DNA of 64,000 bases from Lytechinus pictus (taxonomy: Eukaryota). The position numbers were made by a program, and so were the translations under genes. Every line of letters begins with the position of its first letter. Within the stretch, counting starts at the first letter, position 1. Shown here in pieces: positions 1 through 61,211 of the stretch. The notes beneath the pieces are model-generated. The model searched no databases, was not told the origin of the DNA, and saw only the letters and a program-made list of their open reading frames with translations. The stretch is taken from contig NC_087250.1 of assembly GCF_037042905.1 (NCBI RefSeq), positions 24,368,001 through 24,432,000 on the forward strand. The letters are read 5' to 3'.

Positions 1-309
1 ACATGTAATTCCATTATTCTAACATTTTGTGGTTCGAGCAAAGGGGCACTAATATTATCGAATTCGTAAAAATTGAAATATTGTATTATTCAAACAAAAA
101 CAAAAGAAATAGTGAGTGAGTGACATCATCGTCTCTCTCATTTGCATATCACCGAGTTGAGTATAGAACTGTTTTGTGAAAAATAAGCCAAATTTTAAAA
201 TGTCGTAACTCTCTTATTTTACATCCGGTTTTGATGAAATTTTCACCATTATTCAAGTTTGATTTGTCTCTATTTATTCAAATCATTTTTTCTGGGGTGG
301 ACTTGACCT
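1..309. mobile_element. Right part of a Kolobok-like non-autonomous DNA transposon
   Basis: Ends GGGGTGGACTTGACCT followed by TTAA; same family as 2899-3286 and 4146-4748. Confidence 0.7.
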
Positions 310-1295
310 TTAATGACTTTGACATTATTTTCCTGCTATATATTACTGTCATGCGAACAAAAGAAGCAATTCTGTGGAACAAGTTTATGAGGAAATGTGT
401 AAAATTGTCATTGTCATTTTACATGTGGAAATATAGAATTTCTTGCTTTTTAAGTGACTCCATTTAGGAAACTTGGGGCCATGTGACTTCAATTAAACTG
501 GCATCATGAAGAAATTACATAATTAACCCAAATCAAGGGGAGTGTCAATTTTGAAGGATATAAAGTTGCTACCCTCTTTCCATATACATGTATACCCAGT
601 AGGTATATTCAAGAAGACATCGTGGCCTCGGAGGAAACTTTCGAGAGCTTTGTTCTGTTGGATCTTCAAAGTCGTTGTTCCCAACTGTTTGGACATATGC
701 AGGATGGAATCTCTGATAGAATGACGTTAATTACCCGTCGCCATCACACCATATATGAAAAAAACGAAGATATATGTGATCAAGACTTGTCTGATTTGGT
801 AAACACGCAAGAAACTGAATTTGGAAACCGCGCGCTGTATAATTATGTATAGGCCTACAGTACACAATACAACCAGGGAGTTGGGAGTCTCCCTGATACA
901 ACATCACGGCAGACGGTACAGTACACAAGTCTATGGCTAATGTTGTGCTGATTTGTGCGATCCGATTGATTATGTGTGTGTGTGTATTGTATATGTAATC
1001 TATATACGATAGTCTACGCTCAAAAACCTTATTGTAGGTATCAGGGGAAACATACACGATCCGATTCATTTATGATGTTTTTGTGTGTTTAATTTGATTT
1101 CTTTTATAAATTATTTACAACAAAAAGTCCTTTCTTAGGTAATTAATATTCATTTTATCGGTAGATCACACCATATTTCTCAACCCAGTAATCTTCCCTG
1201 CTGTTAACAAAGACTAGCGGCTGAACGGGAGGCGTGTCCACTTTTAACGACTTTCCCTCAAAAATCTGAGGGAGTGACGTCACCGCTGAGCAACT

Positions 1296-1420
1296 GTTCT
1301 AGACGATATTTTTCTCGGAGTACAGGTTCTCGGTTTTGCGCGCACACTCGGCGGGGCGTACGCACGGAATAGAACGTATATATCGGTGAAAACAAATTCG
1401 TTTAATATCGTCTAGAACTA
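1296..1420. mobile_element. Short MITE with about 16-bp TIR (possibly Academ-like)
   Basis: TGTTCTAGACGATATT ... AATATCGTCTAGAACTA inverted termini. Confidence 0.5.
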
Positions 1421-1474
1421 GACTAGTTCCACACACGTGTGAGCACTGCAGTGCGTGGGCGGAAGTGGTGACTT

Positions 1475-1952
1475 TTGTCATTCATGCTAATCCTAGCGGG
1501 AATGATAACTGACAGCATTTCCGGTCATCGCTGGTTTTGCGCGCCCAATTTTGTGTGTTGTCACCCACGTCCGCATAAGTGGATGTCATGTGACTTTTCT
1601 AACCAATCAGAGACATGTACCCTGCGAGATACCGTGCATACGGCACTTCGACAGAGTATATAAGGCCTGCTTTTACAAACTTTGCTCATTCTCTGACAGG
1701 TCAGACTAGTCTATAACGCCGAGGACATTGATGCGGGAATTAAGCAACTAACTCGGAAACGACCTGGCGCAGATAATCTACCAGATTGAAGAGCGCCAAC
1801 TTAACTCCAACACCAACCAACCAACCTTTGCTCATTCTCCTGAGGACGACAAGAACACAGTTGTCGAAACGTCGAGATTGGGTGGTCCTTTTCAGGACCA
1901 ACATCTGCCCAAGAAAGATACATGGTGTACCGTGAAACCTACTACACTATGA
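1475..1952 (+). mobile_element. Penelope-like element pseudo-LTR (solo, no ORF)
   Basis: CCAAT box near 1602, TATATAA near 1657, hammerhead motif at 1831-1882, and a CCGTGAAACCTAC 3' end resembling PLE pLTR ends. Boundaries approximate. Confidence 0.55.
1831..1882 (+). ncRNA. Minimal type I hammerhead ribozyme
   Basis: Stem I CTCATTCTC/GAGATTGGG; core CTGAGGA(C); stem II GACAA-GAACACAG-TTGTC; GAAA; palindromic ACGT stem III; GTC cleavage triplet (cut after 1873). Confidence 0.8.
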
Positions 1953-2898
1953 CATCATATATGATGAGAAATTACATATTTCTTTACGAATCATGTTTTC
2001 AGACACTGAGTAGTCCACTCATAACTCACAGTCAAATGTTTTTGTGGAGCTCATTTTTCCCCATTCAATTTGTATGTAAAAGAGTATACAGGGATCCATG
2101 GGAGCTATTTTGAATATCAAGAAAAGAGATATTTTGTCTAAAAAATGTTTTCAGACAGTATTTTACTCCTGCAGGACTATTACAGGCTTTTTATAGTAAT
2201 AATTTTGTAGAAATAGTCTGCTTCGGCATATGGAATAAAATAATCACAAATGATTTATTAAATGCCGTAGAAATAAAATTTTAGATTTTAAAAGGAGTGT
2301 AGCTCTCAAAAATGAAAGGTAATGTCACACTCTTCGTCAGTGCCCATGATGTGACAAAAAAAAAGAGTTCAAAATCCGTTTCTGAAACAGTCGTGAAAGG
2401 ATGCTAATACATCAAGAAAGCATTGAGACATAGTATGGTCTTTGTTTCATCAGGTTTAATACGAGCTTTAATCTGGCCATCGGGGCTAGTTTCTTCAGGT
2501 ATCAATTTAAGAGTAAATGCTTGACCAAACAGGTGATTTATGTGTACAAGTGAATGTAAATAAGTCGGAGGACCAGGCTACGTGCCAATGCTTTCTTGCT
2601 GCATTACCATCTTTTCAATATTTCTGACACAAAAAGCACCCACGCAATTTTGAGGTCCTTGCTCTTCACATTTGTATACATACACTGTAATTTCAAAAAC
2701 GCTGTTTACCATGTGAATCGCACAGTAGTTGTTTTAAACATTGAAAACAAGTGTTTGAAATATTAAACTACAAAGTTTAACTTCAAATATTTAAAAATAA
2801 ATAATTTGAGCATGGTTGTTTAAGATTTTATTTAATCGGGATGTTTAAACCGTTTAAACAGCTACTGTGCGATTCGCATAGTAAACAGCGTTGTTTAA

Positions 2899-3286
2899 AG
2901 GACAAGTCCACCCCAACAAAAAGTTGATTTGAATAAAAAAAGAAAAATCGAACAACTATAACACTGAAAATTTCATCAAAATCGGATGTAAAATAAGAAG
3001 GTTATGACATTTTATAGTTTCGCTTAATTTCACTAAACAGTTAAATGCACATCCTGGTCGGTATGCAAATGAGGAGAGGGATGGTGTCATCCACTCACTA
3101 TTTCTTATGTATTTTATTACATGAAATATGAAATATTATAATTTTCTCATTGTCAAGTGAAACAACTCCCTGAACATGTGGAATCAGCATTGTTTAATAC
3201 TATATGGTTCAGTCAACTTGGTTCGTACTGTCAAATATGTAAAAATGAAATATTGTTTTATTCAAACAATAAAAACAATAGAAATA
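2899..3286. mobile_element. Truncated Kolobok-like MITE inserted at TTAA next to a palindromic CACTG-type MITE (about 2683-2898)
   Basis: TTAA|AGGACAAGTCCACCCCAAC start; homologous to 4146-4748. Confidence 0.7.
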
Positions 3287-3343
3287 CTCCGATCAGTACT
3301 TCATTAATCAGCACAGCTCCGCTGTATTTCTCCCAGTTTGTGA

Positions 3344-3601
<258 letters not shown>

Positions 3602-3630
3602 AAGAGGAAGTTGGTCTAGTAGATTGTATG

Positions 3631-4118
3631 CCAGAGGGGGGGGGGGGGCAGTCAAATGTATTGTTGTACACACGTGTGACCAAATTATTTCCAAACACCC
3701 CCTAAACGAGTGTTTCTCTGTGTGCAAAATAACCCCTTAAACAAGTTTTTCGCTGGTTTCTTTCACACAAGTTGTCACCAGAATATGACCCGGTCTGAAC
3801 AAGTTTTGTCTACTTGCTAACAATAAGCTATAGACAAAACTATTTTCATGGGTATAGAATACCCCCCAGTAGAGGGTTAAAATCCAACAATCGGGAAGAA
3901 CCCAAGCACTTTTCAGAAACGAGGAGAAATTAAAAAGCCCTGGGGTAAGAGCCTGGGGAAAAACATACCCTAAACACGTTTAACTAGTCTTTAAAAAAAA
4001 GCTTTGGAAAAAATACACTTAATACATTTGAACCCCGTGATTGACCAGTCTTTCAAAAACACCCCTTTTTGGTCACGCGTGTGTACAGCAATAGACTGCA
4101 CCCCCCCCCCTACCCGGG
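3631..4118. mobile_element. MITE with G-run/CCCGGG termini immediately after the calponin stop codon
   Basis: TATTGTTGTACACACGTGTGACCAAA ... TTTGGTCACGCGTGTGTACAGCAATA inverted repeats. Confidence 0.6.
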
Positions 4119-4893: not shown

Positions 4894-5066
4894 TACCTCA
4901 GTCACGTTTGCTCTACGGCGGCCGTACGGCCAGTCGAAAACAGCCGTTTTAATATTTTTTTATTTGCAATCGCTATTTAGGCTGATAGGTGGTTTGAATA
5001 AAAATGAATAAAACGGCCGCTTCCGACTCGCCGTACGGCCGCCGGAGAGCAAATGTGACTGAGGTA
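4894..5066. mobile_element. Palindromic MITE
   Basis: TACCTCAGTCACGTTTGCTCTACGGCGGCCGTACGGC ... GCCGTACGGCCGCCGGAGAGCAAATGTGACTGAGGTA; a related left end is at about 8589. Confidence 0.75.
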
Positions 5067-34636: not shown

Positions 34637-37043
34637 AAACACGTGGAAAATAATTAACAGAACATTAAAGAGAAACAGTAAAACGCAAAATAATATTAAA
34701 ATTAAATCAGAGACTAACGATTTTATTGAAGAACCTCAAGCAATAGCTGATACTTTTAACGCGTACTTCTCTCAAATTGGCGAAAAACTTGCAGAAAATA
34801 TACCGACAACTGACAGTAAATTTGATAATTATCTTCCTTGTTTTTTGTCCCTACCAACCGTGAGGAAATTATCGGTTTAGTGAATAGGTTAGAAGGAAAG
34901 AAAAGTTCAGGACACGACGAGATTGATAACCGTCTCCTCAAATCCATAATCTTAACAATAGCGACTCCGCTGGCCCACATTTTTAACTTATCACTAAGTA
35001 GTGGCAATGTACCTAATAACATTAAAATTGCGAAAGTAATCCCAATATTTAAAAAAGAGACATATCTAAAACAAAAAATTACAGACCAATATCACTATTA
35101 CCATCATTATCCAAAGTTTTGGAAAGGATCGTATTTATTAGAGTGACAGACTTCTTAAACAAACATAGTTTTTGCGAATCACAGTTCGGTTTTCGAGCTA
35201 ATCGTGATACTACTCAAGCAATATTGAAATGCACTGATACATTATCACATGCAATTGATCAACATTTACACACTATTGGAATATTCCTTGACTTTTCCAA
35301 GGCTTTTGATACAATTAATCATAATATCCTTTTAGTAAAGTTGTCACACTATGGTGTTAGAGGGAAAGCCTTGGAATGGTTCAGGAATTACTTATCAAAT
35401 AGAAAACAATATGTACAAATAGATAATCATAATTCAGCGTTACGATTAATAAATTGTGGAGTTCCGCAGGGAAGCATCCTTGGCCCCTTGTTATTTATCA
35501 TATACATAAACGACTTTTATAAATCTTCAGACGTTCTATCTTTCATTTTATTTGCAGACGATTCAAACTTATTTTATTCTCATGCAAACTCAATTACTCT
35601 TCTTTCTGCTATAAATCTTCAACTAAAACGTGTAGTACAGCGGGTTAAAGCCAACAAATTATCTCTAAATTTTGTTAAGACAAATTTTATGTTATTAAGT
35701 AACACTTTGCGAAATCTACCCGGAGACATCATTTTGGACAACACGCCTCTCAATAGGATCACATCAACCAAATTCTTAGGGCTCACAGTTGACGATAAAT
35801 TAAAATGGGACATTAATATTCAAAATATTTCCAAAACTGTATCGCGGAATGTTGGTATAATGAACAAACTTCGACATTTCTTTCCAAAATCAACACTATT
35901 TACACTCTATTTCTTACTTATACTTCCGTATTTTAATTATGAAATACTGGCTTGGGGTAACGCCTACAAGAGTGTCACCGACAAAATGCTTATTCTACAA
36001 AAGAAAGTTATTAGGATTATACATAATGCTCCTTTTCGATGTCATACTGATGATTTGTTCTACAAGTCGAATCTCCTCAAATTTCCGGATTTATTTCTTT
36101 TTCATACAGGACAATCTATGTACAAACTGAACACAAATGAAGTACCAAACATTTTGATGATCATGTTTACAAAAAACAACGCTATTCACAAAATCCTACC
36201 CGACAATCCCGACGCTTCAATCCCGACGCTTCAACCTTCGCCGTACCCGTACTCTCTTCGCACAAAAAACAATTACCTTCTATGGCCCGAAATACTGGAA
36301 CTCACTAAGAAATGACACCATAAATGCTGCCAGTTTGAACTGTTTTAAGATTAAACTGAAGAAACAAATTATTGAATCATATAAAGCAAATTGCAACTGA
36401 ACAGTCGGTAACCGATCCCCTGTACCCTCCTCTTTCTCTTTCCCCCCCTCCCCCTCCCTGACCGTCTCTCTACCTCGCTCTCTTCCGCTCATTCTCCTTC
36501 ATCGGTCTTATCCCCTTCACTCTTTTGCTTTTTTTGTTACTCCTACTTCTCTTCCTCTTTCAACCACACATGTGCACCACCTTATCCTCTTCTTCCATTA
36601 TCTCGGTATTTCTTCATCAACCATCACATCAACCTTATTCTTTTTTTTCTCTCATTCTCATATTCGTTTTATACCTGTACCTACAAATCTTTGATTCATT
36701 CTTTGAGAGGTCCACACTCAACAAGCCCTGCTTTTTAGTGGATCCCTCCATTTACTCAACTTTATTTATTGAAAAAAAGGAATTATAAAGGTAGCCTTGC
36801 AAATTGTTTTATTGAGAATGGTATACATTTTTTTTCTATTTCCATTGCATATATTGTTATTGGATAATATGATTATAACGTTAGTGTTTTCCATAAACAT
36901 TTTACTTTTCTTGTATAATCATATTGCTTGCAATGTATATTCATTTGTATTGATTTGTATATATGGTTATCATTTTATATCTGTGTAATTATTTTATTAT
37001 GTTGTATTGAGTTGAGAAATGAAATCAACTTGAAACTTGAAAC
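34637..37043 (+). mobile_element. 5'-truncated, frameshifted non-LTR retrotransposon (L2/CR1 group, Crack-like) RT, 3' UTR and (AACTTG)n-like tail
   Basis: ORFs 34838-35146 and 35119-36315: QFGFR, FLDFSKAFDTINH, GVPQGSILGPLLF, FADD motifs. Confidence 0.92.
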
Positions 37044-37477: not shown

Positions 37478-39545
37478 TATAATAATAATAATTATGGATA
37501 TTAAGAGCCGCTAAAACAAAAAGTACCATATAGCGCGTACAATGTATGAATGATTATTTAACATTTGCAATAATAACCACAATTAGTAATTCGAGATAAA
37601 AAGGGAAATTAATTATTGAGGAAAAAAGGTATGTCTTAAGGGAAGATTTGAAGCCAAAAATACTGGAAGCATTATTTATTTGAAGAGGGATGGCATTCCA
37701 AGTCTTGGCAGCTGCTACAGCAAAACATTTTTCGGCAGAGGAGAGTTTCGACAAGGGAATGCAAAGTCTGCATGTGTCGGTGATTGAACGAAAATTACGA
37801 GAGGGTGTGTATACTTTGATGGTATTATTAAGATATTCAGGTACCAATTGATTTAGAGTTTTGTATACATATAACAGACTTTAAACTGAATACGTTGGAA
37901 TGGAGGTAGCCAGTGAAGTTCCTTAAAGTAGGGGTGTAGTATGAGTTCGGGATCCAAAGCCAAAATTTAATCGAGCGGCACGATTCTGAATATCCTCGAG
38001 TTTTCTTCTATCCCTAGCTGACAAAACAGTATATAAACTATTGCAGTGATTTAACCGAGAAAGAATAAGTGCCCGCACAGCACGGTAACATGTCTTAAGA
38101 CATGTAAGATCAATGAATCTACAAATCCTCCAAAAATTGCTGAGATGATAATTACAATTACGGACAACCTGATATACCTGAGCAGACAGTGTGAACATGT
38201 TATCAATGCATACTCCAAGAACAGTAGTTTTAGTGGAGATGGGGATGCATTGACCATTAACATTAAGCTGGATATGTGATATTGTTAGCAGATGGCGGGC
38301 AGAAGAACAGAGAGCTATGAATTCTGTTTTGCTATTATTCAGCTGGAGATAGTTAGATGACATCCATATACTTATTTCTGAAATACAAAGAGAGGTTTTC
38401 CCAAGTGTTTCATTGATATTTTCAAAAGAGCACGGGTCAAAGGAACAATACAGTTGTATAACATTGGCGTAACAAATAAAATGTAGACCATGTTTATTAA
38501 TAATGTCAGAGATGGGAGAGATACACAGACTAAACAGAATCGGCACGAGAACTGACCCTTGAGGTACCCCAAACTAAGTGACCAACGGGTCAGACAACTC
38601 TCCCGTTATGCTTACCCTAGATGACCAACCAGTCAGATAAGACTTAAACCATCTCAGAGCTAGACCAGAAATGTGAAATCGAGATTCTAAGCGATTCAGT
38701 AATATGGTATGATCCACAGTATCAAAAGCTGCACTTAGGTCCAATGAGACTAAGAAAACACACTTATGTTGATCAAAAAGTGACAAATCAACATTCTCCG
38801 ATTTCAAAAGGGCTGTCTCAGTGCTGAAATAGGATCTATATGCTGACTGCATTGGATCGTATAAGCCATTATCATTAATTTATGCGTTCTGTTAGTTTAA
38901 TTGATACTACCTTTTCTATCACTTTAGCAATATGTGAAATATTGCTAACAGGCCTATAATTACATAATGTGTCTTTATTCAAATTGTTTTTTCTTGATTA
39001 TTGGTGTAACAGTAGCCTGATGAACACCATCTGGAAATGTACCCGATGATAATGAACTGTTTACAATATAATGTAGGTCAGAGCAGGAATATTGCAATTG
39101 ACAATTTTTTTTCAAAAGCCAAGTAGGTTGAGAATCTGTTAAAGAAGTGACTTTAGACATATTGCTTACAATGCGTTTGATATTATCCTTAATGACGACC
39201 TCAAAACAATTGAACATACTTTCATGAAAAGAACTGACTTCTTGATTATCTCCACTTCTTTGTGGAGGTGTATTTGTGACATTGTTGCGGATATCACTCT
39301 TCTTGACTAAAAACAAAGAAAGACGATTTGCTAGATCAAGAGGATTTTCATACACAGGAAGAAATTCAACATTCTTGTGGATCAGATTATTATCAATTTC
39401 AAAATCTGTTTCGACATTAGCTTTACAATGTAATTCCGTATAGTATTTTGTCTTAGCCTTTACTATGAGGTCGTTAACATGCTTGTTAGCTAGCTTAAAA
39501 GCTGTGTGATCAGTGTCAGAAGAACTTTTGATTCATTTCCGTTCA
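37478..39545 (-). mobile_element. Decayed L2-clade LINE RT with an (ATT)n tail
   Basis: [46 protein letters not shown]; several frameshifts. Confidence 0.9.
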
Positions 39546-46534: not shown

Positions 46535-47384
46535 CTGTAATATAATTATGAAAAATAAGTAAATAAGTAAATACATAAGTAAACTCAACAAATTAGGTAT
46601 TAAATATGTTAAATTATGTGGGTTTGGGGGGGGGGGCATCACCATCAGTATTAGAGCATGATTACAATGACGATTGTTTGCAAAGGGCGAGACAGGCACA
46701 TATACATTGCTTAATACAAACATTAATGTTGACAAAAAATAAAATTGTCATTTTTACTGCATATATCAAGCACAACAAATAGTCCAGTCATTGTAGCCCA
46801 AATTTTGACCAAACTTGGAACAAATTGCAACATAATTTTTTGTCACCACAATGCATTTCTGTGAGGTCCCTAGTACAACATACTAAAAGTCCCAAACTAT
46901 CCAAATAGGGGAAAGGCATCTATTTTGCATAAATCCAAGATGGCTGCCATAATTAATTGATATACCTTATCCTTAATATTATTTGTACAGATAATGGGAT
47001 AATCTATGATTAAGATATTATAAATCCATTGCAATCGTTTTCGGGACTGTCCGCTTAATATTTTTTGAAAAATGTGAGAATTTATGCCAAAATTTTCATG
47101 TTCTCGGTCAAAAAGTTGCATGTGCGTTAATATCTTTCTGTTTCATCACTAGCATCAACAACTAATGCACAAGATTAAAGGCAAATACATCCGAATGTAT
47201 TATTCGATATTGCAGTAAAGTGACACCAAACACCAACCTCCGTGTCTTAGTCACACTTTTGATATCGACCACAACGCGATCGCTGGCATGCCTTTGAAGG
47301 GAGTACAATATATTAAATTGGTCTTGCCTAGCCTTTGTTGGTATGACCATGAGCGTATAGCGATAGAAAGGTGTATATTATCAA

Positions 47385-48957
47385 TTGCAATAACAAGTCA
47401 ATTTGCTAAAATTGCAGAATCTTTTATAGCCAAATGGCTTCTTAAAGATATCACTGACAAAATTGACTCACGACAATTCGGAAACCGCTCTGGTTTTTCG
47501 ACCACTCATTATCTTGTGAGTTTGCTCCACAAAATGTATGAGAATGGCGAAAAGAGCAAGAGTCTATCCACGGTTGTGTGTACTGATTTCACAAAGGCAT
47601 TTGATAGGCTGGATCATATTAAACATCCTCGTTAGGAAGTTGATCAAACTCAATGTACGACCTTGTATCATTAGATGGATTATAAGTTTTTTGGAAAATC
47701 GTCAACAATATCAAGGCACTTTGTCTAATTACTTACCCAATCACGCTGGCGTACCCCGAGGGACTAAATTAGGTCCTATCCTCTTCCTGATTATGATTGA
47801 TGATGCTTGTGAAAACACATCAGTCGATTGCTATAAATATGTAGACGATCTTACTTTGTTGGAATGTCGTAAAGAAAATTATCCTTCTGACTTACAATCT
47901 ACATTATACAATCTGGATCAGTGATCCTCCTAAACCATGTAAACCACATGAAGTTGAACCCTTCAAAATGTTCTTCACTAATTGTGACATTCTCCAAATA
48001 TCCTCCTGCTGAGCCAAGCTTTTATATTGATAACTTACCTCTACAAAAACTTCAATCTGTTAAAATTCTCGGTGTAATCGTCCAATCCAATCAAAAATGG
48101 GACCTACATATCATGGAAATCATCAAAAATGTAACAGGAAGTTGAACATGTTTAGGCTTTTGAAGCGATATGGGCTGTCTCTATCGGATCTGAAATTGAT
48201 ATACATGGGCTACATTCGTCCTGTTATGAAATATTGCACCCCAGTTTTTAATGGTGGGCTTACAAAGAAACATGTAAGAAGTTTAGAGCAAATTCAAAAA
48301 AGAGCTTGGAGAATCAGGTTGGGCCAAAACTACACAGATGATGCCAGTGCTTGCCTATCATGTAAAATTCCTACTCTGGAATACAGAAGGGAGAAACTCA
48401 GCCTGGATTTCGCAATGTCTTTAACCAAACATCCAACATTCAGTACCTGGTTACCTCCTCCAAAAAACTTAACCATCAATCTCCGACATACTCCTAGATA
48501 TCAGCAATACAAATGTAAGACAAATCGATTTCGCAATAGCCCCATACCATATTTCATAGATCTCCTGAATAAAGACATGCCTAATCAATAAACCCATTGC
48601 TCATTTGAAAGCAATACCAGCCTACTTGCAATATCAAGATTTTTCATGAATGAGGAAATCAACTCTTTTATTTAATATCCATATATTTTTATTGATCTTT
48701 TACAGCTTACTTATTTTGTTTTTATTATTCTTAATTTACCTTTTCCTCATTATCTTATGTACATGTTTATACATTTTCATTGCCTAAGTATTCTTGCCTA
48801 TACACATATTTATCATGTCAGTTTTTACAAAGGTGTACTGCTTTTTAATGTTTGAAATATGTAATGAGTCTTTTAATTGTTTTAACTTTGTATACATGAC
48901 CAATTCAGCCATTTGGCTGCGACTCATGTTTTTAATAAACCTTGAATTGAATTGAAT
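47385..48957 (+). mobile_element. 5'-truncated, frameshifted non-LTR retrotransposon RT (L2/CR1 supergroup) with an (AATTG)n tail
   Basis: QFGNRSGFSTTHYL, DFTKAFD, GVPRGTKLGPILF, KYVDD, LEQIQKRA, RFRNSPIPY. Confidence 0.9.
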
Positions 48958-52851: not shown

Positions 52852-52986
52852 ACTAATTTAGCTCTTAAAGAGCGTGTGTAGTGACTGCACTTCGGAGTGC
52901 TGATTTGTCTACTTCAAATTTGAACGAGCAAAATCAGCGCTCCAAAGTGCAGTCACTGTACATGCTCTTTAAGAGCTAAATTAGCT
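52852..52986. repeat. Near-perfect hairpin of about 135 bp in an intron
   Basis: CTAATTTAGCTCTTAAAGAGC...AGTGACTGCACTT... / ...AAGTGCAGTCACT...GCTCTTTAAGAGCTAAATTAG. Confidence 0.85.
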
Positions 52987-53022
52987 CATCGTTTTTTAAG
53001 GTATAAAATATAATAAATTTAC

Positions 53023-53316
53023 CACTTTTCCGATAGTATAAAATGATTTCCGCCTTCTCTGGTTGTGTAAATATTGCAGAGTGAGGCATCGTCACTTTAA
53101 CAGGATGTTCAAAGATTGCGTTAGAAGGCGCCTTTATCTTCAAGCCAAAGGTAATGATTGCTTCTGTTTCCTTGATTTTCAACTCGGATGGAACATCGTT
53201 AATCACTTTAACCGTAATATCCTTTGCATTGTAAGCTTCGTTTGGTGGTATTTGTACTTCAATGCCATATTCCTCGAGTCGAATTATTTCAGGAATACCA
53301 TTTGATTCCTCGACAT
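53023..53316 (-). CDS. ZU5-domain exon of an UNC5CL/PIDD-like ZU5-death domain protein
   Basis: TTTGCAG acceptor, GTAAAT donor, 294 nt, phase 1-1; LEEYGIEVQIPP...E.IITFGL...FEHPVKVTMPHSA is a ZU5 signature. The 5' exons were not identified. Confidence 0.8.
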
Positions 53317-53959
53317 CTGCAAAATTTAGAAGAATGTTTCACAAAACTAAAGATAAATGTTGATAAACATTTTTCTTTTAAAGAATACATCAATTAAAAT
53401 GGTATACAGGTATCAAAATGTCATGAAAGCAGATGGATATAATGAATATAAAACAAAATCAAATAAAGTGAAGACGAACAAAAATAGGCCTAAGTCGAAA
53501 TTGAATCACAAAGAGTAGTACTGTATCATAGAAACATCTGTCTGAGGATCAGCTCTATGATTAATGTGACAGAATTGTAATAAACGCCTGACAAAGACGT
53601 ACGACGAAAATGTGGGTGCAATGAATACTTATTGGCCCAAAAAGTACTTTCAACACTATATACACAACAAAAATAAGTTCCTCCTAAATCATATTGCTGT
53701 AACTTTTGAACGGAACAGTTTTGAGATATAACATTTCGTAGGTGGTTGTCTTTACTCATCAAGCAACTTCTGAGGAAAAATGAGATTGATTGACATTGAA
53801 TCAAAGAGTCAACTGCGGTATAAAACCCCTATTTACACAAGTTACATCAACATTATGAGCTATATATCTGACCAGAAAAGTGTCAGGAATCAAAACAATA
53901 TAAGCAATATCAACTTCGACCAAGCAAAAAGTCTGAAATTGACCCCAAAACTGCAACCA

Positions 53960-59315: not shown

Positions 59316-61211
59316 CACTACTCAAAAAAAGTTAAGGACCACTTTTTAAAACGTACATAAAGATTTTATACAAGGTGTTTTATTTCTGGAAATACCTCAG
59401 TACAACTGTCCTAAATGTCCTTAAACACGCTGTAATCAATTTCACGCATGGGTGGTTTCAGTTGTTGCACAATGTCTCTCGCATCACTGCACATCCTGAA
59501 AAGTGGGCCCCGAGGGGTATCAGCTACCGACATGAAGTGGTAAAAACGAATGTCTGAGTGTCTTTCAGGCAGTTCAGTAACGAGTGTGACCACCTCATGC
59601 AGCAATAACGGCTTCACAGCGCTGTCTCATGGAGCTGATGAGGCGATTGATGTCTCTGACGTCCATTGCATCCCATGCAGCCTCCAGAGCCACACCCAGC
59701 TGCTGCAGTCCAAGTGGATGGGCTTCGAGCTGGTCGAGACTCCTCCCCATCATGTCCCAGACGTGCTCTATCGGGTTTAAGTCCGGGGACCTCGCTGGCC
59801 ACTCCATACGCTCAATCCCCTGGCCCTCAAGGAACTCGGTCACCACCCTAGCTCGGTGGGCACGGGCATTGTCATCCATGAAAATGATGTTTTGTCCCAC
59901 ATTTTCTGCAAATGGCACCACTATAGGTTCAAGGACCTCATCCCTGTACCTCACTCCTGTCATTGCTCCCCCTGGGACCACGTAGAGACGAGTACGGTTG
60001 GCGTAGGTGATGCCTCCCCACACCATGACGCTGCCTCCCCCATAACGGTCATGTTCTGCAATACAGGGGTCTGCAAATCTCTCTCCTGGTCGCCTCCAGA
60101 CTCTCGAACGTCCATCATTGTGGTCAAGGGAAAATCTGCTCTCATCTGTGAACAGAACTCTACGCCATTGCTGTCTGGTCCATCTGACATGCTCCCGGGC
60201 CCAGTTGAGACGAATTCTTCTGTGAGCAGGGGTGAGTGGGACACACTGAGCTGGCCGTCTGGCATGCATATTGGCTCTGTGAAGTCGGTTACGGATTGTT
60301 TGAGTGGAAACAATCACTCCAGTTGCTGCAGCGAAGTCATTGTTGAGGCGGCGTGCACTGTGAAAGCGGTTGCGGAGGCTAAAATTCGTCAAGTAGCGAT
60401 CATCTCTAGGGGTTGTCGAAACTGGTCGGCCACTGCGGGGTCTCTCGGAGTATAGCCCTGTCTCTCGGTGTCTTTGATTTGCTCTGCTAATGACACTGTG
60501 TGACACGCCCATCATTCTGGCTACTCTTCGCTGACTGAGGCCAGCTTCCAGCATCCCTAGGGCTCTGGCTACATCTGTTTCACTTAGGTGGTGTCTTGGC
60601 ATTGCTGTTGTAGGCAAGTTGTTGATTGTACAGACTAAAGACGGAAAATGCTTTGGAAGACACTTGTCTTATGGCCCACTGCAATGATGCCAGAGACATC
60701 ATGAAAGAACTGCATGTGTGAAATTGATGTCATTGTGTTTGATGGCATTCTGGACAGCTGTATATTGGCATTGCTATTGTCAGCAAGTTGTTGATTGTAG
60801 AGACTAAAGACAGAAAATGCTTTGGAAGCCACTTTTGTACGGGCACATTGCAATGATGCAAGAGACATGAAAGAACTGCATGTGTGAAATTGATTTCATT
60901 GTGTTTGATGGCATCCTGGACAGCTGTATCTTGGCATTGCTGTTGTCAGCAATTTGTTGATTGTAGAGACTAAAGACAGAAAATGCATTTGAATCCACAT
61001 TTGTACCACTTCACAATGGGCCCACTTTTCAGGATATGCAATAATGCGAGAGACATCATGCAACAACTGAAACCACCCATGTGTGAAATTGTTACAGGGT
61101 GTTTGAGGAGATTCAAGACAGCCATATTCGGGTATTTCTAGAAATACAACACCCGGTTTGAAAATTGTATACACACATTAAAAAGTGGTCCTTAACTTTT
61201 TTTGAGTAGTG
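59316..61211 (-). mobile_element. Full-length Tc1 transposon with imperfect TIRs of about 195 bp and TA TSD
   Basis: TA|CACTACTCAAAAAAAGTTAAGGACCACTTTTTAA at both ends; encodes a transposase. Confidence 0.95.
59595..60602 (-). CDS. Tc1 DD34E transposase with a premature stop 7 codons before the ancestral end
   Basis: HTH region, GRP motif, FTDESRF, VMVWGGI, FMDDNA-34aa-E in WPARSPDLNPIEHVW; first ATG at 60602. Confidence 0.95.
   Translation of the reverse strand: MPRHHLSETDVARALGMLEAGLSQRRVARMMGVSHSVISRANQRHRETGLYSERPRSGRPVSTTPRDDRYLTNFSLRNRFHSARRLNNDFAAATGVIVSTQTIRNRLHRANMHARRPAQCVPLTPAHRRIRLNWAREHVRWTRQQWRRVLFTDESRFSLDHNDGRSRVWRRPGERFADPCIAEHDRYGGGSVMVWGGITYANRTRLYVVPGGAMTGVRYRDEVLEPIVVPFAENVGQNIIFMDDNARAHRARVVTEFLEGQGIERMEWPARSPDLNPIEHVWDMMGRSLDQLEAHPLGLQQLGVALEAAWDAMDVRDINRLISSMRQRCEAVIAA

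Follow-up and report, generated by a model that had tools for sequence, protein, structure and literature searches.

A histone-type stem-loop behind the minimal hammerhead ribozyme of a Penelope-like element fragment in Lytechinus pictus

Introduction

The window analysed here is a stretch of 64,000 nucleotides (64 kb) from Lytechinus pictus, and near its beginning it carries a minimal hammerhead ribozyme which is followed, ten bases after the cut, by a stem-loop of the type found at the end of replication-dependent histone mRNAs, and then by a purine box that may be a histone downstream element. The hammerhead is real and of a known kind, namely the pLTR ribozyme of a Penelope/Poseidon-type retroelement; by itself it is ordinary, as minimal hammerheads in pLTRs are already known. 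What appears to be new is its histone-type neighbour, which relatives of the motif suggest to be conserved across a clade of echinoderm Penelope-like elements (PLEs). The sequence-only reading of this DNA, from which the analysis started, had described the hammerhead and mentioned neither the stem-loop nor the purine box.

Sequence reads were drawn from 4 of 24 runs (RNA runs X23 and X24, DNA runs X2 and X10), with about 6% of each raw run covered, and the organisms A and C of the read runs may not be the species of the window. Most published sources (PMC2377424, PMC3884669, PMC4209133, PMC5054213, PMC7026596, PMC8557442, PMC11167929, PMC13725137, bioRxiv 2026.07.22.740005 and bioRxiv 2026.10.14.759114) are cited for their accessible sections.

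Structure and detection of the hammerhead

The motif is a minimal type I hammerhead on the forward strand (1840-1877). Its core is formed by CUGAGGA (1840-1846) and GAAA (1866-1869), with an extra C at 1847; stem II has 5 bp (1848-1852 with 1861-1865), the palindrome ACGU occupies 1869-1872, and C17 corresponds to 1873, so that the cut falls between 1873 and 1874, just before the 3' arm of stem I. The core, the extra C after A9, the 5-bp stem II and the stem III reduced to ACGU were all found exactly where the sequence-only reading had put them. Its stem I of about 8 bp held in part: the window copy folds with 4 bp, a U-U mismatch and five further pairs, but relatives keep only the 4-bp UCUC/GAGA, and a transcript starting at A1834 of the cap box would retain at most five pairs. 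Most copies of the family have a C at 1860 (179 of 199 and 180 of 192 reads in X23), which extends stem II to 6 bp; the window copy has lost that pair. The motif agrees with the minimal hammerhead consensus in the supplement of Cervera and de la Pena 2014 (PMC4209133) in its CUGANGA, one unpaired base, stem II with G10.1-C11.1, GAAA, palindromic 15.2-16.2 and NUH. Covariation among genomic copies, whose absence the sequence-only reading had named as part of a refutation, was also seen, with two stem-II pairs changing on both sides among four copies and the 4-bp stem I invariant.

A descriptor scan of the 64 kb on both strands returned this hammerhead as the sole intact match. In 200 dinucleotide shuffles of the window there were three descriptor matches of any kind, and none had a minimal stem III together with a stem II of at least 5 bp. 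The Rfam hammerhead models, which had been proposed as a check, gave no match to the motif, whether E values as high as 10 were allowed or the gathering score was applied, and it is not a canonical hammerhead with a stable intramolecular stem III and a covariance-model match. The folding energy is unremarkable (z -1.8; 9 of 200 shuffles fold equally well), the intermolecular stem III of the monomer has 4 bp at about -1.7 kcal/mol, and the computed dimer fold did not yield the active form. HDV-like and twister readings of the neighbouring stretch 1694-1825 were dropped after inspection by eye.

Organization of the inserted element

The hammerhead is one part of a composite insertion of about 660-700 bp, which is almost certainly a non-coding pLTR fragment of an echinoderm Penelope/Poseidon-type retroelement. 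The parts follow each other as promoter, cap box, minimal hammerhead, histone-type stem-loop, purine box and insertion end, and in longer copies the AUG of an ORF for reverse transcriptase (RT) and GIY-YIG comes next. All features of the element lie on the forward strand.

The first part is a GC- and CpG-rich, non-coding, promoter-like segment (1284-1679) with a GC content of 0.47 vs 0.29-0.32 in the flanks. Its 5' boundary is uncertain (about 1250-1290); repeat depth begins in bins 1246-1327 (X23, X10), and a possible 8-bp target duplication with one mismatch (1275-1282 and 1950-1957) is tentative. A TATA box at a fixed spacing ahead of an initiator motif is a common arrangement at transcription starts. 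The segment contains a CCAAT box (1603-1607), to which a promoter function is ascribed from its sequence, and a TATA box (1657-1663), which precedes the A of a TCATTC initiator by 31 nt (A1688, corresponding to A1834 where the insert is lacking). Besides these, the sites 1275-1282, 1331-1342, 1533-1544 and 1584-1593 hold what we take to be one CRE-like, two E2F-like and one E-box-like motif, presumably a proliferation-type layout, and a 15-bp inverted repeat is found at 1296-1310/1404-1418. A bacterial promoter scan was empty, which is irrelevant to the element. The promoter of Drosophila Penelope is described in the accessible part of PMC2377424 as internal and TATA-less, so the promoter proposed for the window family would not be general.

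Between promoter and cap box lies a 146-nt unit (1680-1825), formed by one copy of a 14-nt direct repeat and a 132-nt insert, which is absent from other copies of the family. In the RNA runs X23 and X24 and in the DNA runs X2 and X10 the segment 1284-1679 is joined directly to 1826, and in such copies the TATA box therefore lies 31 nt before A1834. A minus-strand intron was ruled out as the source of this joint, because it occurs in DNA runs too and has the 14-nt direct repeat. The unit has several hairpins and is also found elsewhere, starting at 1694 in an unlike flank (X2). Within it lies a degenerate second pair of hammerhead core boxes (1719-1726 and 1756-1763), the only other such pair on either strand of the 64 kb. 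A non-LTR retrozyme, with tandem units that each have an intact hammerhead, does not describe the insertion, as there is one intact motif in 64 kb beside this degenerate core.

The cap box, which includes the 5' arm of stem I, spans 1834-1839, with A1834 as the putative transcription start; no capped RNA end was seen there in about 6% of runs X23 and X24. At the other end of the element, a conserved CATGG motif and an AC-rich end (1921-1950) form the 3' insertion boundary and probably the site where reverse transcription starts. The ORF of full-length copies begins 12 nt beyond 1950; this start is absent from the window copy, and neither the ORF-start motif nor a PLE ORF was found elsewhere in the window.

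The histone-type stem-loop and the purine box

The stem-loop (1884-1899) has 6 bp and a 4-nt loop, and is identical, letter by letter, to the hairpin of a Drosophila H3 processing substrate (PMC3884669). Its 16 nt include G2-C15, U6-A11 and the loop residues U1 and U3; a G-C as the second stem pair, together with a U at loop position 3, are given as diagnostic for histone hairpins in the accessible text of bioRxiv 2026.10.14.759114. With the Rfam model RF00032 the hairpin scores 16.6 bits (E 0.042), below the gathering cut-off of 34. No other hairpin in the window is both fully paired and consensus-like, and a looser match (at least 14/16) occurs within 4-30 nt after 96 of 42,628 sampled positions, the true site included. 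Its 5' flank is G/U-rich vs the A/C-rich flank of histone hairpins; in the three relatives L001-L003 and in most copies of the genome G001, described below, this flank is A/C-rich.

The hairpin is followed by AACA (1900-1903), where a histone-type cleavage is predicted 4-5 nt after the hairpin, and six bases later by the purine box CAAGAAAGAT (1910-1919), a candidate histone downstream element, or U7 pairing site. CAAGAAAGA is presumably the sea-urchin form of that element, for which the literature searched gave no printed source. Cleavage of histone mRNA is placed 5 nt downstream of the hairpin (bioRxiv 2026.10.14.759114), and the conserved U7 box UCUUU (PMC5054213) is complementary to the AAAGA that the purine box contains. 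No histone-like ORF was found in 1-3700; relatives have a GIY-YIG ORF upstream of the hairpin. A tandem duplication of exactly the hairpin and purine box (1883-1918, joint 1918>1883) is supported by one DNA contig and by RNA reads, 12 and 15 of them, from a single strand.

Relatives and covariation

The pattern of hammerhead core and hairpin was found in two metagenome contigs (L001, L002) and at no viral locus, and a related pattern in one contig among prokaryote genomes (L003); 20 viral matches to a looser pattern, which had no hammerhead core upstream, were treated as chance. L001 and L002 are 3' ends of PLEs in which a GIY-YIG ORF and its stop codon are followed by cap box, hammerhead, hairpin, AAAAGAGAT and CATGG motif, with the hairpin 75-76 nt after the stop codon; the assignment to a Penelope-like element made by the sequence-only reading is thereby borne out. 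In L001-L003 the hairpin equals that of mouse H2a, and RF00032 gives 33 bits for L002 (E 4e-7), 29.8 for L001 (E 6e-6) and 28 for L003, all below 34. L002 continues into MQSFKHHLV, of which 7/9 residues are identical to the start of the full-length protein P0040 (MQTFKHHLI).

The nearest named homologues of the GIY-YIG ORF come from Asterias, Patiria, Lytechinus and Diadema and have RT with a C-terminal GIY-YIG. In the 7/7 proteins listed, the 70 residues preceding the GIY motif contain 0-1 Cys, and the RT-EN linker has no Cys finger. Since a zinc-finger linker motif marks Neptune and Nematis, unlike Penelope/Poseidon (PMC8557442), this criterion, rather than a tree, indicates that the clade is Penelope/Poseidon. 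The link of the window copy, itself devoid of an ORF, to such elements runs through its relatives, with GIY-YIG upstream in L001 and L002 and RT in the full-length homologues; the copies also end sharply on the 3' side, with an optional tail, are truncated to varying degrees on the 5' side, occur in inverted pairs and sit in AT-rich targets. L003 is a mini-copy without purine box that starts at the cap-box A (plus or minus 2) and lies in a SINE with a 5-bp duplication; read by eye, the contig has a transporter-like exon as well as SINE-like repeats and seems to be animal DNA that ended up in a MAG. Protein hits and likeness to the Patiria motif only suggest that the hosts of L001-L003 are starfish.

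Further copies were found in 14 small contigs (257,758 bases) of a genome labelled Nitrospirales (G001), where a profile made from 8 seed copies gave 28 matches at E up to 0.05, not all of them complete. Among these, L045 is a double hairpin that does not belong to a PLE, and two others are repeats of the tail alone. Many of these small contigs (about 257 kb) are animal-like, with exons, SINEs and PLE fragments, and are probable host contamination; host histone genes, U7 and a full PLE ORF were not found in G001. Among 31 rows, with the window, L001 and L002 included, 13 have all six pairs and at least 14/16 consensus letters, the rest being decayed, truncated or tail-only. In L036 (7338-7620) a mini-copy is followed by tandem repeats of the segment from CATGG to AUG. 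L045 (10760-10836, L027) has two tandem histone-type hairpins and then AAGAGAGAT, with 37 bits for RF00032; no histone ORF was seen nearby, a transposase-like ORF lies upstream, and it appears as a non-PLE element with a histone-type end.

Hairpin variation stays within the histone consensus at 14/16 positions, loop included. A set of 12 copies, picked because their hairpin is fully paired, shows two-sided changes at pairs 1, 3 and 4, while G2-C15, C5-G12, U6-A11 and loop U1 and U3 never vary; none of 500 shuffles reached the covariation score, a result that is inflated since the set was chosen for pairing and its members are related. In an unselected test with four copies there were four compensated pairs (2 of 500 shuffles). 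The bottom pair is A-U in 5 of the 12 selected copies and also in the commonest G001 type, which has no AAAGA box. The distance from cut to hairpin varies from 10 to 22 nt among copies, while in the window, L001, L002, L045 and the commonest G001 type the end of the purine box lies 20-22 nt beyond the hairpin. AAAGA is present in the window, L001 and L002; in G001 copies the box is variable or deleted, and in several subfamilies it is the 3' arm of a second hairpin. By eye, the box is deleted and the hairpin spared in 5 of the 28 G001 matches (L037, L040, L042 and two copies in L043), which belong to different subfamilies, and such deletions might reflect either skipping by the reverse transcriptase or escape from U7 cutting. 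A hammerhead-first scan of the G001 contigs, in which the hairpin was ignored, gave three intact motifs, one with the hairpin and an inverted pair of another PLE family (L046) without it, so that the hairpin marks a subclade.

Reads of the family

Repeat depth rises steeply toward the 3' end of the element, and in all four runs it breaks at 1947-1950, either into AT-rich flanks or into a continuation common to many copies, with 267 reads of X23 and 97 contigs of X10. Past 1950 this continuation has an ATG 12 nt on and by eye reads METFRS (compare METFKD in P0038); as it reads like an ORF start, this would place ribozyme and hairpin in the ORF's 5' leader and, where elements stand in tandem, directly behind its stop codon.

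Among the 5' junctions listed, two fall on sites of predicted meaning: 1834, the predicted cap site (43 reads in X23, with one contig of X2 at 1835), and 1874, the exact ribozyme cut, which is among the best-supported loose ends (38 reads in X23, 44 in X24 and 15 contigs in X10). Others lie at 1845 (68 and 62), inside the catalytic core just before stem II. Clipping of alignments at common variants could add to the count at 1874 and perhaps explains 1845. By eye, four or five of the G001 matches start at the cap box, about six start inside the core, two extend upstream, and one inverted pair (L049) has its joint within plus or minus 2 of the cut site. The junctions at 1845 and those in the core of about six G001 copies may mark a reverse-transcriptase stop, a further RNA end or alignment clipping. 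A junction pile-up at 1906 (17 contigs, X10) was not used as a U7 product, since it is probably explained by clipping of alignments at two common variants, 1904 and 1905.

RNA 5' ends at 1874, another check proposed by the sequence-only reading, did not appear: in about 6% of the two raw RNA runs, which are dominated by read-through of dispersed copies, there was no pile-up of RNA ends at 1874 or near 1903, nor were there reads on the unique flanks of the locus. Sense and antisense depth over the hairpin is near-equal (299 and 295; X23, bin 1861-1901), and 93-94% of the aligned reads continue into unlike sequence, i.e. they are passive read-through.

A possible histone-type end for the element mRNA

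The reading we prefer, and whose chances we regard as evenly balanced, is that this echinoderm PLE clade ends its mRNA in the histone manner via U7, and that the hammerhead is able to sever that end. That the host stem-loop-binding protein (SLBP) binds the hairpin of the element, taken alone, is probable from its sequence. PLEs sit in partial tandems, and the same block therefore follows the stop codon of the preceding ORF. In this downstream repeat the U7 snRNP would cut behind the hairpin and leave an mRNA with a histone-like end and no poly(A) tail, which would be translated alongside histone mRNAs in S phase, eggs and early embryos. The hammerhead, placed between stop codon and hairpin, would serve as an off switch, in that dimer- or protein-assisted cleavage would remove the SLBP-bound end. 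RNA that escapes both cuts would become the template, and reverse transcription starting at about 1950 in the 5' repeat would end by run-off, either at the cap (1834) or where the ribozyme cuts (1874), giving abundant mini-copies of 77-117 nt. The hammerhead of the Anolis element cleaves only with the protein of the element, and the uncleaved RNA is the template (PMC11167929), which fits both a feedback switch and copies that keep the sequence past both cuts. It counts against the mechanism that all genomic copies extend beyond the predicted U7 cut, where their templates were accordingly uncut.

This mechanism is supported by the order of hammerhead, stem-loop, box and AUG, which recurs in relatives behind the GIY-YIG ORF and in the short copies of G001, by the identity of the hairpins with known histone hairpins (Drosophila H3, mouse H2a), by the covariation of the hairpin, in which the positions diagnostic for histone hairpins stay fixed, and by the spacing of the purine box, which appears steadier than the distance from cut to hairpin, as a U7 ruler needs (PMC7026596). 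The 5' junctions at 1874 and the L049 pair joined at the cut are suggestive only. The main objection is that hairpin and box are also present in the 5' repeat, where they should cut the mRNA short. Also against the mechanism are the window hairpin, below the Rfam cut-off and with a G/U-rich 5' flank, the A-U bottom pair and missing AAAGA of the commonest G001 type, and a purine box that in some copies is an arm of a second hairpin or is deleted, as are the lack of RNA end pile-ups, the near-equal strands and the passive read-through in the RNA runs. The 75-76 nt between stop codon and hairpin exceed the 25-60 nt quoted for histones in the accessible text of bioRxiv 2026.10.14.759114.

A wider version is offered tentatively, as a conjecture we hold more doubtful than sound: the clade may have hijacked the histone mRNA pathway, with a U7-cut, SLBP-bound end in place of poly(A), expression with replication and in eggs, a hammerhead acting as protein-triggered switch, a box that changed with the U7 of each host, and 5' junctions of mini-copies that record the cap site and ribozyme cleavage in vivo. 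If so, the mini-copies, possibly tens of thousands per genome at the density of G001, would scatter potential U7 sites through introns. The SLBP/U7 route is described as processing no mRNAs other than those of replication-dependent histones (accessible part of PMC5054213), and this pathway would gain a non-histone client in a clade that keeps a histone-type end by its ribozyme in hosts among the sea urchins and probably the starfish. Such an end would suggest how an element is timed to replication in germ line and embryo, and the minimal hammerhead would thereby have a concrete job.

Comparison with known elements and signals

Lunse and colleagues, in 2017, are said to have dealt with the minimal hammerheads of metazoan Penelope-like elements. 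The window motif is like those of Cervera and de la Pena (2014; PMC4209133) in core, extra nucleotide after A9, G10.1-C11.1, palindromic 15.2-16.2 and short stem I, in the predominance of solo truncated copies, and in a Patiria example whose stem II is nearly that of L001; it differs in the histone-type hairpin and purine box behind the cut. The Patiria line of their supplement ends 10 nt after the cut in GGUUC, a possible start of the same hairpin. With the Poseidon element PAc of Anolis (Frangieh et al. 2024; PMC11167929) the family shares a Penelope/Poseidon ORF with C-terminal GIY-YIG, a hammerhead in the pLTR, an insertion that ends in an AC-rich stretch, about 100-115 nt beyond stem II, an optional tail and AT-rich targets. 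PAc differs in an ORF placed at the start of stem II, whereas here the AUG lies behind the insertion end, in the lack of any histone signal in the accessible text, and in having no reads at the ribozyme cut, where the genomic 5' junctions of the present family are enriched (suggestive only).

The likeness to the 3' end of replication-dependent histone mRNAs (RF00032, SLBP, U7 snRNP) comprises the 16-nt hairpin, an ACCA-like flank, an AAAGA box at similar spacing and, in relatives, an intronless ORF that ends shortly upstream. The differences are that there is no histone ORF, that the ribozyme stands between stop codon and hairpin, that the signal also occurs before the AUG, and that the window 5' flank is G/U-rich, the stop codon more distant and histone-type processing here predicted only. 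Animal non-LTR retrozymes (PMC7229834; bioRxiv 2026.07.22.740005) are likewise non-coding, PLE-derived and endowed with a type I hammerhead, but they are tandem arrays with a ribozyme per unit and not a single intact motif.

The combination of a PLE hammerhead with a histone-type hairpin was not found in the literature searched, a scope outside which Repbase, Dfam and Lunse et al. 2017 lie. The word histone is absent from the accessible text of PMC4209133, PMC11167929, PMC8557442, PMC7229834 and bioRxiv 2026.07.22.740005, as is stem-loop from that of PMC4209133, and three supplement files of Frangieh et al. 2024 contain none of the motifs looked for.

Alternative explanations

The position of the hairpin upstream of an ORF start raises the alternative that an SLBP-bound hairpin acts at the 5' end, either by protecting hammerhead-cleaved, uncapped RNA, which would start 10-22 nt before the hairpin, or by recruiting ribosomes to the AUG about 60-85 nt downstream, the purine box being an attenuator or irrelevant. 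It would agree with a hairpin more constant than the purine box, with 1874 junctions that suggest persistence of cleaved RNA, and with viral 5' UTRs in which hammerhead cleavage permits cap-independent translation (accessible part of PMC13725137); we nevertheless judge it improbable, given that the box holds a histone-like spacing in most types and that a stop codon stands 75-76 nt before the downstream hairpin. Nor is there a case known to us in which SLBP acts from a 5' UTR. Another possibility is that the hairpin, whether captured from a histone gene or convergent, serves the element's own reverse transcriptase by binding or positioning it near the initiation site, and that no host histone factor takes part. 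The Anolis PLE protein requires the region directly following its hammerhead, where it initiates within a stem-loop (PMC11167929); here, conservation extends to a second small hairpin and to the CATGG motif, the non-canonical A-U bottom pair is common (5/12), and processed RNA was not seen in about 6% of the two raw RNA runs. Against it stand the variation, which respects the histone consensus even in the loop, and the L046 family of the same host, with hammerheads and no hairpin, which implies that PLE enzymes do not need it in general; this explanation is rather unlikely, and a histone-type end remains the reading we prefer.

The remaining alternative concerns the host gene. The last coding exon of an MP20/myophilin-like gene of the calponin family lies at 3386-3601 on the forward strand, has a Pfam PF00402 calponin repeat and matches the Lytechinus pictus MP20-like protein (P0156) at 71/71 residues; residues 1-130 have no match within the 64-kb window, and the upstream exons would lie before base 1. 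The element accordingly sits in sense in the last coding intron, which agrees with the placement given by the sequence-only reading. That reading went on to suggest that the ribozyme could cut the host pre-mRNA, and a lone minimal hammerhead might do so in cis or by pairing with another transcript, with an effect on the gene: the orientation is sense, the core is intact and a degenerate second core lies 121 nt upstream. This is very improbable. The second core is altered at U4 and U16.1, the motif is a monomer whose intermolecular stem III amounts to 4 bp, and published monomers show no self-cleavage in vitro (PMC4209133) or depend on protein (PMC11167929); reads were found neither on the flanks of the locus nor ending at the cut in the portions of the RNA runs covered. 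The assessment applies to the intron from base 1 of the window on, its earlier part lying outside. The intronic copy is probably a dead, monomeric and inert leftover.

Other features of the window

The rest of the window holds RT fragments (PF00078), unrelated to the PLE clade by tblastn, an exon with a ZU5 domain and a 357-aa frame for a Tc1/mariner-type transposase, located among 35053-36315, 37923-38573, 47219-47924, 52976-53338 and 59595-60668. At 4908-5052 there is a long, near-perfect, MITE-like inverted repeat with a weak match to MIR5635.
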